From: Minisyncoccota bacterium
GTDB taxonomy: Bacteria; Patescibacteriota; Minisyncoccia; Phycocordibacterales; UBA9973
Direction of reading: 5' to 3'
Assembly: GCA_041674285.1 (NCBI GenBank)
Contig: JBAYVZ010000005.1
Coordinates: 5,176 to 69,175 of the forward strand
DNA: 64,000 nt
How positions within the stretch are numbered: the first letter of the stretch is position 1; every line of letters begins with the position of its first letter. This document shows positions 40,092 through 41,747 of this stretch, one piece after another. The translations under genes and the position numbers were made by a program. Below the pieces are notes generated by a model, which did not search any database, was not told where the DNA came from, and saw nothing but the letters and a program-made list of their open reading frames with translations.

Positions 40092-41747
40092 ATGAAAAAG
40101 ATAATAGTAGCGATTTTATTTGTTTTACCAATGATAGTATCAACAGCCAAGATAGAGGCTGTTTCCCTAGTAAGTAACAGCTTGGAGGTAAAAGATAAAA
40201 AAGTAACCATGAAAGTAAACCTATCAGCAATATCTAATGCTGATAAAGAGATACTGACAGCAAAAGTCTTTTCTACCTTCGAAAACAACAAACAGATCGG
40301 AGTATTCACAAAAACTTTCACAAAAGAAATTAGCAACATGGGTACACCCCAAATGCTAGCCATAGACATGCCTGATTCAGCAAAAGATGGGAATTATACT
40401 TTTACTATTGATTCAAATGAAGGGGATTCAATACCAGCGACACCATTTGACTACAAAGCTCCAGTAGTAAATACTCCGAACACAACTCCGTGTATTGTAG
40501 ACAAGGCGAATTTTTACCCTTATGGCGAAACTGGTGATACTTTCTACAAAGAGGGTAGCACAAAAGTAAGTATCGTGATACAGACTGTTAACTGTGCAAA
40601 CAAAGATTTAAAATTAACCGTCAAGGAACTAGACAGGTGCCCAGCTAGTTCTATCCCAAATTTCAACTGTAACGACGCATTGAGTAGTTCAGGGCTGGAA
40701 AATAAAACAATAATAATGCCAGCTACCGAGTCAGTCACACTAAACTACATAGCAGGAGAAGAAAATTGTGAGACTCTAGGTTTAGCGGATGGATATGATT
40801 GTCTCTATTACTTTGAACTAGCCACTCCAGATGGGGAAAAGTGGTCGTCTATGGACCGCGCAGGGGGGAGAATATCGTATGAGTGTGATGGTATTTGCAA
40901 CAAAGACTGGGAACAAGCAGGACCCCAGGAAGACACAGTAGACCCGGGGGCAATAGACCCACGCATAGCAAATGATGAGTACAATCTCCTGGCTCCAATC
41001 GGTGAGATAAAATCGATAGATGACACAAAACAATTAGGAGACTACATTAATCTAATGGTGAAAATTTTTCTAGGCATATGTGGTGCATTGGCTGTGATAA
41101 TGATTGTCATATATGGAATACAGTGGATGGGTACAGATTCTGTATTTGGAAAGACAGAATCAAAGCAAAAGATAGGTGGAGCACTGATGGGACTAGTACT
41201 AGCACTAGGATCATGGATGCTACTAAATACTATAAACCCAGATCTACTAGGCGGAGAGCTCAATATCGGACAAGCAAATATAGAAGTAGAAGAAGACGCT
41301 ATGAGTTCAAACGATGCTCTGCCACCACTAGGTACGGCAGTAGCGAGGTGTCCAGAAGGTATATACCAAGTGCAGACAGCTGGTGGAGTATTCCCAGTAT
41401 GCAAAACAATGCAAGATAACTTAAAAAAGATGATAGACCTGGCATGGAGTCAGAATATTAAAATTACAGGTTTTGGATTTAGGTCAAAAACTAGACAAGA
41501 GGAATTGCGTGCACAAAATTGTGGAGCAGCAAATGTATACAAGCAAAATGCAAGATGTAAGCCAGACACAGCAATCCCGGGGACTTCAATGCATGAGAGC
41601 GGTCTTGCTTTTGACTTTAGATGCGAAGGTTCAAAGATAGCAACCAAAGACAACAAATGTTTCCTCTGGCTAAAAGCAAATGCAAGTAAATATAATCTTA
41701 AAAATCTATCTAGTGAACCTTGGCACTGGTCAACAACTGGACACTAA
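40092..41747 (+). CDS. Surface protein with a VirB2/TrbC-like two-helix hairpin and a C-terminal M15 (VanY/LAS) peptidoglycan-hydrolase domain
   Basis: IFLGICGALAVIMIVIYGIQWMGTDSVFGKTESKQKIGGALMGLVLALGSWMLL (compare VirB2 ...GISWMFGRAS...); the C-terminal SMHESGLAFD (SxHxxGxAxD) and EPWHW (ExxH) are M15 zinc motifs. Confidence 0.5.
   Translation: MKKIIVAILFVLPMIVSTAKIEAVSLVSNSLEVKDKKVTMKVNLSAISNADKEILTAKVFSTFENNKQIGVFTKTFTKEISNMGTPQMLAIDMPDSAKDGNYTFTIDSNEGDSIPATPFDYKAPVVNTPNTTPCIVDKANFYPYGETGDTFYKEGSTKVSIVIQTVNCANKDLKLTVKELDRCPASSIPNFNCNDALSSSGLENKTIIMPATESVTLNYIAGEENCETLGLADGYDCLYYFELATPDGEKWSSMDRAGGRISYECDGICNKDWEQAGPQEDTVDPGAIDPRIANDEYNLLAPIGEIKSIDDTKQLGDYINLMVKIFLGICGALAVIMIVIYGIQWMGTDSVFGKTESKQKIGGALMGLVLALGSWMLLNTINPDLLGGELNIGQANIEVEEDAMSSNDALPPLGTAVARCPEGIYQVQTAGGVFPVCKTMQDNLKKMIDLAWSQNIKITGFGFRSKTRQEELRAQNCGAANVYKQNARCKPDTAIPGTSMHESGLAFDFRCEGSKIATKDNKCFLWLKANASKYNLKNLSSEPWHWSTTGH

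Follow-up and report, generated by a model that had tools for sequence, protein, structure and literature searches.

We analysed a 64,000-nucleotide stretch of DNA from a Minisyncoccota bacterium (contig JBAYVZ010000005.1 of assembly GCA_041674285.1; referred to here as the window) and found that one gene of its type IV secretion system (T4SS) locus, at 40092..41747 on the + strand, encodes a protein in which a VirB2-like pilin hairpin is fused to a peptidoglycan peptidase. The open reading frame (ORF) starts with ATG, is uninterrupted over 551 amino acids (aa) and specifies, in order, a signal peptide, two beta-sandwich ectodomains, a helical hairpin and a VanY/LdcB-type M15B zinc peptidase (Table 1). 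An initial annotation, made from the sequence alone, had proposed that a pilin-like hairpin and an M15 hydrolase are combined here in one protein; the ORF is as it described and both domains are matched by profiles. It had also stated that the arrangement was not recognized from described systems. This holds within the literature that we searched; the protein is, however, one of a large modular family. The components are of known kinds; the novelty lies in the fusion itself, in its standing as sole VirB2-like gene in a fixed slot and in the hypervariability of the two cassettes that surround the hairpin.

The hairpin has the layout of the T4SS_pilin family, in which a signal peptide precedes two hydrophobic helices joined by a short loop. 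The helices span residues 317–348 and 360–381 by hydropathy and 315–347 and 351–381 in the AlphaFold model; they and the motif GIQWMGTDSVFGKTESKQK are present as the initial annotation had read them, at a position slightly N-terminal of the residues 320–400 that it gave. The T4SS_pilin profile (PF18895) scored 21.9 bits against the full-length protein (E = 1.8e-4; cut-off 26.6) and exceeded its cut-off when the 90-aa hairpin module was scanned alone (27.5 bits, E = 3.3e-6); the TrbC/VirB2 profile (PF04956) scored 15.1 bits over the full length (E = 0.027; cut-off 27.9). Among 44 non-redundant homologous hairpin modules, 43 matched PF18895 and 29 matched TrbC (E < 0.01), and Mbov_0395, the NCBIfam model for a 'pilin-like conjugal transfer protein' of a Mycoplasma integrative and conjugative element (ICE), gave a sub-threshold match to the hairpin (E = 1.8e-4). 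Because the similarity is specific to T4SS_pilin and TrbC/VirB2 profiles, the hairpin is not a generic double-transmembrane (TM) anchor, the possibility that the initial annotation had named as fatal to its proposal. To judge from these sequence profiles, the likeness to TrbC/VirB2 is one at superfamily level only, and the small form of those pilins (~70–100 aa when mature) is absent: the mature target protein has ~528 aa and carries two large ectodomains instead. Ahead of the first helix, Y297, L300 and P302 of a Y-x-L-L-A-P-I-G motif are invariant in homologue alignments, and the model places strands at residues 297–303 and 306–309.

The C-terminal domain is an M15 peptidase with both zinc-ligand motifs, as first annotated (S499-MHESGLAF-D508 and E542-PWHW546). 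Pfam VanY (PF02557) matches residues 438–548 with 43.5 bits (E = 3.4e-11) against a cut-off of 25; the lack of such a profile match was the other outcome that the initial annotation had named as refuting it. The zinc ligands are H501, D508 and H545, the catalytic residue is E542, and R464 and Q469 belong to the substrate-binding motif. In phmmer comparisons with the Protein Data Bank (PDB), the H-x6-D and E-x-x-H motifs align with those of solved D-Ala-D-Ala carboxypeptidases. The domain is modelled with a predicted local distance difference test (pLDDT) score above 90 (residues 420–548), and its best Foldseek matches are BaLdcB (4mph; E = 7.7e-6) and VanXYc, which places it in the LAS/Hedgehog-type DD-peptidase fold. 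Alignment A2 shows conservation of 90% or more for the zinc ligands and the catalytic Glu. Catalytic motifs are retained in 67 of 67 VanY-class, 21 of 22 YkuD and 23 of 24 NlpC/P60 relatives, and with these residues intact the enzyme cassettes look active. Pfam found no SLT or lysozyme-like domain in the target protein; slot orthologues of other species do carry SLT, SLT_2 or SLT_3-like domains. The idea that the cell-wall lytic activity of a T4SS is here fused to the hairpin is therefore borne out for the fusion of a wall enzyme and not established for the word 'lytic', as VanY/LdcB-type enzymes are stem-peptide carboxypeptidases.

The N-terminal ~300 aa had been described as secreted and cysteine-containing, and both properties were recovered. 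Hydropathy gives three hydrophobic segments, residues 1–27 and the two hairpin helices, and 8 of the 15 cysteines lie within residues 134–269. In the AlphaFold model (AF2; mean pLDDT 79.9 over the whole protein) this region forms two beta-sandwiches. The first has tandem FN3/Ig-like matches in Foldseek and is confined to the closest relatives (P0001–P0004, by jackhmmer). The second, cysteine-rich one, modelled separately, reached a pLDDT of 83 with an Ig/macroglobulin-like fold and adhesin-type structural neighbours. A 551-aa protein identical to the target is recorded from a metagenome-assembled genome (MAG) of Candidatus Paceibacterota, a name that NCBI taxonomy places under the phylum Minisyncoccota, and is called 'D-alanyl-D-alanine carboxypeptidase family protein' by NCBI.

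The same three-part architecture recurs in all of the 120 homologues listed, each with a variable N-terminus of 39–583 aa, a conserved core of ~90 aa and a C-terminal domain of 162–256 aa. The core consensus is Y-x-LLAPIG ... IGDYxNxIFxIAIGLCGALAVIMIVIxGVQYMGxESVFGKTEAK..I..AILGLLIALGAYALLNTINPDL. A chance pattern was considered and is excluded by this recurrence, which extends to 80 independently assembled genomes. Precomputed Pfam labels of the homologues' C-terminal domains include VanY, NlpC/P60, YkuD, Peptidase_M15_4, Amidase_2, SLT and SLT_2. A profile of the core, searched against 1.84 billion representative proteins, found 252 relatives at E ≤ 1e-30 and 6,527 at E ≤ 1e-10. When GTDB was scanned with one genome for each species, at least 280 species were found to encode a hairpin relative, and the matches listed all come from Paceibacteria, Nomurabacteria or Parcubacteria-type MAGs. 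The fusion was absent from 72,556 plasmids searched by tblastn with hairpin and peptidase, in which only the VanY part matched (in van clusters plus a small number of others). The fusion is particular to this clade of Paceibacteria. Database labels for the family are piecemeal: 'pilin', 'M15 family metallopeptidase', 'ErfK/SrfK' and 'VirB2 component'.

The gene occupies a fixed position, or slot, in the T4SS locus. We assembled a synteny sample of 86 loci (80 GTDB loci drawn from the species above and six further contigs) and scored gene order wherever the contig reached. Relative to the slot gene, offsets are constant, with PrgI at −4.0 kb, the TrsD-like gene at −3.5 kb, VirB4 at −2.9 kb and a gene for a 328-aa protein at −1.0 kb; the slot gene is the second after VirB4 and is followed by a conserved downstream gene, jag, yidC and dnaA. 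The T4SS setting that the initial annotation had supposed is confirmed in the window, where PrgI, a split CD1110-type VirB4 and a polytopic VirB6-like protein are encoded upstream. A hidden Markov model (HMM) of the hairpin family, run over six frames, together with a scan for small ORFs with two TM segments, found no other pilin-like gene in the 64-kb window. For RAAC4_OD1_1 (693-kb genome; locus L051), a published survey lists one VirB2, two genes past VirB4, and no VirB1 (Table S3 of PMC12102498). From this gene order we infer that the entry is the fusion slot gene, which that table names plain 'VirB2' with its extra domains unmentioned.

To compare the enzymes of these loci, C-terminal domains were clustered after 40 linker residues had been trimmed; the untrimmed linker merged unrelated enzyme classes. 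VanY and YkuD clusters were still joined after trimming, through a protein of locus L045 that carries both domains. The C-terminal domains fall into at least 13 classes that are unrelated by BLAST: VanY (14 loci), NlpC/P60 (11), YkuD and SLT_3-like (8 each), an 'ECWLHS..HYH' class without a Pfam label (7), an 'NNPGNIG' class, also without one (6), SLT_2 and SLT-like a (5 each), M15_4, SLT and SLT-like c (3 each) and Amidase_2 (2), with the loci outside these having a singleton class or no enzyme. Pfam gave no label to five class representatives ('ECWLHS..HYH', 'NNPGNIG', 'GPHLH', M15A-like and SLT-like_c) or to the unclustered tail of L083. The recurrent cassettes without a label (L022, L013, P0062, P0024 and others) show the motifs 'TECWLHS..H.PG..VD..HYH', 'TNNPGNIGNTD', 'GPHLH' and, in an M15A-like form, 'CHYNGTCVD..GEHF'. 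These motifs lead us to suspect that some are LAS-type zinc peptidases or SLT-like enzymes, and such cassettes may represent undescribed families of peptidoglycan enzymes.

Unrelated enzymes occur in pairs of loci in which VirB4 is 94–99% identical. In the case of L055 (SLT-like) and L075 (NlpC/P60), VirB4 is 99.0% identical, blastn aligns most of 16 kb at ~85% identity and the hairpin is 83% identical; two of the stretches that do not align fall in the slot gene and correspond to the N-terminal ectodomain and the C-terminal enzyme. The downstream gene is ~87% identical across different enzyme classes. Clustering divides the N-terminal regions into at least 26 groups, and the largest group is paired with nine C-terminal classes. 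The N- and C-terminal regions thus vary independently while the core is kept, and the slot gene therefore consists of a conserved core and two independently exchanged cassettes. We infer that recombination uses the core and the flanking genes as homology arms. Saccharibacteria are the group in which natural competence has been demonstrated to date (PMC12857230). Base composition of the cassette is not anomalous (GC content 0.41, compared with 0.36–0.41 in neighbouring genes). Within 8 kb of the slot, no immunity gene or unfused copy of the enzyme was found in the 86 loci, the extra matches being a gap-split L036 and a truncated L065. There was also no class-specific extra ORF beside the slot; the downstream gene belongs to the same conserved family whatever the class.

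The slot also holds proteins with other numbers of hairpins or enzymes. Five species (L071, L073, L074, L076 and L082) have bare-hairpin slot proteins with a tail of 5–81 aa and the same downstream gene directly after. The smallest (L076, 156 aa) consists only of a signal peptide and a hairpin, with the Y-x-LLAP motif immediately after the cleavage site (SLA|ENYNLLAPLP), from which it follows that the beta-sandwiches of the fusions have been placed behind the signal peptide and ahead of the mature pilin's N-terminus. Other slot proteins have hairpins in tandem, two or four of them, ahead of one SLT-type enzyme (P0122, from a JGI contig; L088:1361-3217, P0124). As these carry one enzyme, the ratio of hairpins to enzymes is variable, and the tandem proteins suggest that hairpins pack side by side. 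An 882-aa protein (L045:7008-9662) has two serial C-terminal enzymes, YkuD and then VanY/M15; its YkuD part weakly matches Tlde1_dom, a domain of type VI secretion system (T6SS) effectors (E = 0.021). Two hairpin–enzyme genes of different classes stand in tandem in L054 and L079, and a second copy lies past the downstream gene in L067 and L072. One SLT-like cassette matches PF18896 (SLT_3, 'Lysozyme like domain'), an accession adjacent to that of T4SS_pilin. Both models may derive from a single gene neighbourhood or from these very fusions, a link for which we found no published description. Among long proteins, P0121 (L087:8001-13328; 1,775 aa) has 16 tandem TrbC/T4SS_pilin-like hairpins on a contig where the neighbours look archaeal (ribosomal protein L39e, Cas4) and no T4SS gene is in view, and P0123, P0168, P0178, P0187 and P0206 have 7–11 hairpins. 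Such proteins may be poly-pilin polypeptides or may form rings.

The hairpin is a pilin core and not a mere anchor, on the basis of the bare-hairpin and tandem slot proteins, of its being the sole pilin-like gene in the window and of the single VirB2 listed for RAAC4_OD1_1. Beyond this, our preferred reading, to which we give an even chance, is that the target is a modular pilin of the VirB2 slot with a tethered enzyme that remodels peptidoglycan at the apparatus, firstly in the cell's own wall. The signal peptide would direct the N-terminus across the membrane; helix 1 would run from outside to inside, the loop would be cytoplasmic and helix 2 would return outward, so that the beta-sandwiches and the zinc peptidase would both face outward, where the termini of VirB2 lie. 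The signal peptide, together with the net negative flanks and weakly net positive loop of the hairpin across the 44 homologues, argues for this topology. The conserved hairpin would be the part recognized or assembled by VirB4, PrgI and the VirB6-like protein, and the tethered VanY/LdcB-type peptidase would remodel stem peptides where the apparatus passes the cell wall. Monoderm T4SSs are generally thought to require a wall enzyme for crossing the cell wall. The fusion would supply a function of the VirB1/PrgK type, which is reported to be absent from most VirB2-carrying Patescibacteria genomes, although VirB2-like pilins are reported as common (PMC12102498). Action on the cell's own wall is supported by the lack of an immunity-like gene that co-varies with enzyme class, by the short tether (a linker of only ~35–50 residues between helix 2 and the enzyme) and by the peptidoglycan-binding domain PG_binding_1 in 12 of 36 orthologues of the downstream protein (alignment A3), although not in the window copy.

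Several observations weigh against this proposal. The hairpin alone scores 20.5 bits with TrbC/VirB2 (E = 5.8e-4), which is below the cut-off, and a sequence-profile search with the hairpin over all PDB chains gave no solved pilin even at E = 10. Enzymes of the VanY/LdcB and YkuD types act by trimming or re-linking stem peptides and open no holes in the wall, a poor fit to the classical role of VirB1. The enzyme is dispensable in ~6% of species, which have a bare hairpin and no unfused copy within 8 kb. The unrelated enzymes beside near-identical VirB4 genes are matched by adhesin-like N-terminal domains that are equally variable, and a substrate in the cell's own wall is hard to reconcile with cassettes that change fast while that wall is presumably stable. 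Polymerization of a subunit with ~470 extra residues is itself hypothetical.

Some of these points would be explained if the protein instead armed a pilus against a host. The hairpin would then polymerize into, or cap, a VirB2-like pilus or stalk, and the outward adhesin-like and enzyme cassettes would bind, cut or poison the wall of host or prey; we hold this to be possible, but only tentatively. It would fit the cassette-wise replacement of both ectodomains seen when L055 is compared with L075 within otherwise similar loci, the independent assortment of the N- and C-terminal modules with their adhesin-like N-domains, and an enzyme repertoire of at least 13 classes that covers all major bond types (glycan, amide and several peptide bonds) as well as an L,D-transpeptidase fold. 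Such a repertoire resembles those of antibacterial T6SS and Xanthomonas-type T4SS effectors and of phage lysins, and the weak Tlde1_dom match of one YkuD cassette points the same way. VirB2-family pili have both termini outward, as in the structure of the F-pilus. That carboxypeptidase and L,D-transpeptidase folds open no walls, that ~6% of species have no enzyme and that tandem-hairpin versions lower the amount of enzyme per hairpin also count in its favour, as does the finding that Southlakia requires its T4SS and pilins for epibiotic growth (PMC10633639). Yet there is no cognate immunity gene although the enzyme adjoins the wall of its producer, the hosts of these Paceibacteria may have no peptidoglycan, and as long as the subunit stays in the membrane its tether is short. 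No pilus has been observed, and phage-driven variation of an exposed protein could yield the same cassette pattern. The more specific idea that the T4SS of Paceibacteria is built on one modular VirB2-like subunit, with recombining cassettes that make an armed, host-range-determining pilus and hence an effector system within the pilin, is in our view doubtful.

We also weighed a more ordinary explanation, in which the gene encodes a housekeeping, membrane-anchored peptidoglycan carboxypeptidase with helices that serve just as an anchor and with incidental adjacency to the T4SS. VanY enzymes are usually membrane-anchored, a class A penicillin-binding protein (PBP) gene and other housekeeping genes are nearby, and the NCBI name merely describes a carboxypeptidase. 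This is nevertheless improbable: the hairpin matches T4SS pilin profiles specifically and is absent from plasmid and van-cluster VanY in the plasmids searched, the position inside the T4SS string is fixed in the 86 loci, bare-hairpin orthologues fill the same slot, and the replacement of the enzyme by amidases, lytic transglycosylases and NlpC/P60 peptidases between near-identical genomes is not expected of a housekeeping enzyme. A chimeric ORF, in which an error of assembly or gene calling joined a pilin gene and a peptidase gene, might be suspected because the sequence comes from a MAG and assembly gaps interrupt some relatives (L036). The uninterrupted reading frame, the same architecture in 120 protein clusters listed from independent sources and in 80 GTDB genomes, and a conserved linker between domains predicted to be well folded make such an artefact exceedingly improbable.

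Among described systems, the VirB2-like pilins of Patescibacteria (PF18895; for example, the essential array SEML1_0014-0019 of Southlakia epibionticum) belong to the same hairpin family at profile level and, like the target, come from a monoderm-type (MPF-FATA-like) T4SS locus beside dnaA with PrgI and a split VirB4 (PMC10633639, PMC12102498). They are, however, small (~130 aa) and stand alone in arrays of 2–11 genes with a mean identity of 25% (PMC12102498), whereas the target is a single-copy gene in which the core lies between N-terminal ectodomains of ~270 aa in total and an enzyme of 170 aa; this core is strongly conserved, at 52–72% identity to those of its relatives in alignment A1. 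VirB1, PrgK (pCF10), TraG (pIP501), CwlT and TcpG resemble the target in being wall enzymes of a T4SS string, encoded downstream of VirB4 and membrane-tethered with the catalytic domain outside. Their anchor is either one TM segment or a lipid, and their domains are of the SLT, muramidase, CHAP or NlpC/P60 kinds (PMC12102498); the target differs in its pilin-like hairpin anchor, its M15B carboxypeptidase type and the free exchange of its enzyme class among close relatives. The architecture of PrgK, TraG, CwlT and TcpG is not that of the target, and only the genomic context and the outward topology are analogous. The catalytic domain is the same as that of VanY/LdcB (MEROPS M15B) in profile score, motifs and fold, but it lies outside any van-cluster or wall-recycling context and is fused behind a pilin core and beta-sandwiches. 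The closest conceptual parallel is with modular pilins of type 4 pili such as PilB of Streptococcus sanguinis, which share the idea of a pilin with a grafted functional module, by analogy only: filament system, fold and machinery are unrelated, and the grafted modules described there are adhesive and not wall enzymes (PMC8179133).

The family also resembles polymorphic effectors. In those of T6SSs and of Xanthomonas-type T4SSs, a delivery module is paired with wall enzymes of many bond specificities, and the combination of a conserved delivery module with interchangeable wall-enzyme cassettes (T6SS Tae, Tge and Tlde1; Xanthomonas-type T4SS effectors) is found in the target family too. The target differs in having no adjacent immunity gene and in being an integral membrane or pilin subunit, not soluble cargo. 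Polymorphic toxins are recognized by a variable toxin with a cognate immunity gene directly downstream; here the C-terminus varies and the downstream family is constant.

Directly downstream of VirB4, Southlakia epibionticum encodes essential proteins that have a DD-peptidase fold (SEML1_0007) and lysozyme folds; its pilins are separate small genes. The association of T4SS and wall enzyme is therefore conserved and functionally important. The T4SS of Patescibacteria is the only one shown to be essential for the survival of its own carrier (Southlakia epibionticum; PMC10633639, PMC12857230). Full-text searches of the literature yielded no account of a peptidoglycan enzyme joined to a VirB2-like hairpin; the papers on Patescibacteria T4SSs that we consulted describe the VirB2-like pilin and the VirB1-like hydrolase as two distinct proteins and do not mention a fusion. 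In this large clade a single protein appears to combine pilin and hydrolase, and this would explain the 'missing' VirB1-like hydrolase; a modular pilin also challenges the view of VirB2 as a small, bare subunit. A large share of bacterial diversity belongs to Patescibacteria, whose cultivated members live attached to other microbes; an armed pilus, if true, would be a mechanism by which ultra-small epibionts breach their hosts. The swapped outer domains around a kept pilin core point to an undescribed way of dealing with cell walls, and the two cassettes around a 90-aa core form a sharply bounded hot-spot of domain replacement in a region that is among the best conserved of the chromosome.

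Table 1. Parts of the slot protein and neighbouring T4SS genes in the window.
Feature	Position	Strand	Basis
Polytopic 1,025-aa membrane protein, probable extended VirB6	31613..34690	+	At least 7 hydrophobic segments; gene order of RAAC4_OD1_1
PrgI (VirB3-like) T4SS component	35995..36408	+	Pfam PrgI, 37.9 bits
TrsD/TraC-like N-terminal part of split VirB4, 217 aa	36457..37110	+	NCBIfam VirB4_plasma, conju_CD1110 and TrsD, N-terminal regions; PF26593 in orthologues
VirB4-like ATPase (CD1110 family), 611 aa	37233..39068	+	NCBIfam conju_CD1110, 380 bits (cut-off 325); Pfam P-loop_TraG
Conserved secreted or bitopic 328-aa protein, always directly upstream of target	39104..40090	+	N-terminal TM segment; no confident Pfam family
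Target: Sec-type signal peptide, residues 1–23, MKKIIVAILFVLPMIVSTAKIEA	40092..40160	+	Hydrophobic N-terminal segment; residues 1–28 of low pLDDT
Target: first beta-sandwich ectodomain, residues ~30–121	40179..40454	+	All-beta in AF2 model, pLDDT 65–77
Target: cysteine-rich Ig/macroglobulin-like beta-sandwich ectodomain, residues ~134–275, 8 Cys, mobile module	40491..40916	+	Predicted model
Target: conserved Y-x-L-L-A-P-I-G motif and short beta-hairpin, residues 296–312, N-terminus of pilin core	40977..41027	+	Alignment, model
Target: VirB2/T4SS_pilin-like helical hairpin, helix 315–347, short GKTESKQK loop, helix 351–381	41034..41234	+	Pfam profiles, NCBIfam, model
Target: conserved post-helix tail (NPDLLGG...IGQ..IEVE), then flexible linker, residues 382–419	41235..41348	+	Alignment A2; pLDDT <50 at 392–400
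Target: VanY/LdcB-type M15B zinc peptidase domain, residues 420–548	41349..41735	+	Pfam VanY, PDB sequence matches, Foldseek
Conserved bitopic 439-aa protein directly downstream of target	41759..43078	+	Orthologues in loci

The neighbouring genes complete the T4SS string. The probable VirB6 was equated by matching gene order with the gene two upstream of PrgI in RAAC4_OD1_1, which is scored as VirB6 (Table S3, PMC12102498), and a 385-aa cytoplasmic protein is encoded between it and PrgI on the + strand. The split of VirB4 is kept in relatives, with an N-terminal part of 216–217 aa in 7 loci with called genes, and VirB4 is unusually conserved (65–99% identity among loci from different GTDB species). 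An orthologue of the 328-aa protein is found at its usual offset in nearly all loci. For the downstream 439-aa protein, the ATG at 41759 is the probable start; a TTG ORF from 41720 overlaps the target by 28 nucleotides. One relative of this protein gave faint beta-propeller matches. After it come jag, yidC and rnpA (− strand), then dnaA and dnaN (+ strand) and the gene for a class A PBP, such that the T4SS gene string (26786-43078, + strand) abuts a replication-origin gene set at 43116-48193. An origin-proximal location has been published for the T4SS of Patescibacteria (PMC12102498), and the layout of the window agrees with it; the related loci examined share this layout as far as their contigs extend. 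Farther along, an ORF for a DUF559 (endonuclease-like) protein lies at 51045-51599 (+ strand), between the class A PBP gene and tyrS, and looks like a genome-specific insertion because five related loci that cover the interval have no gene there.

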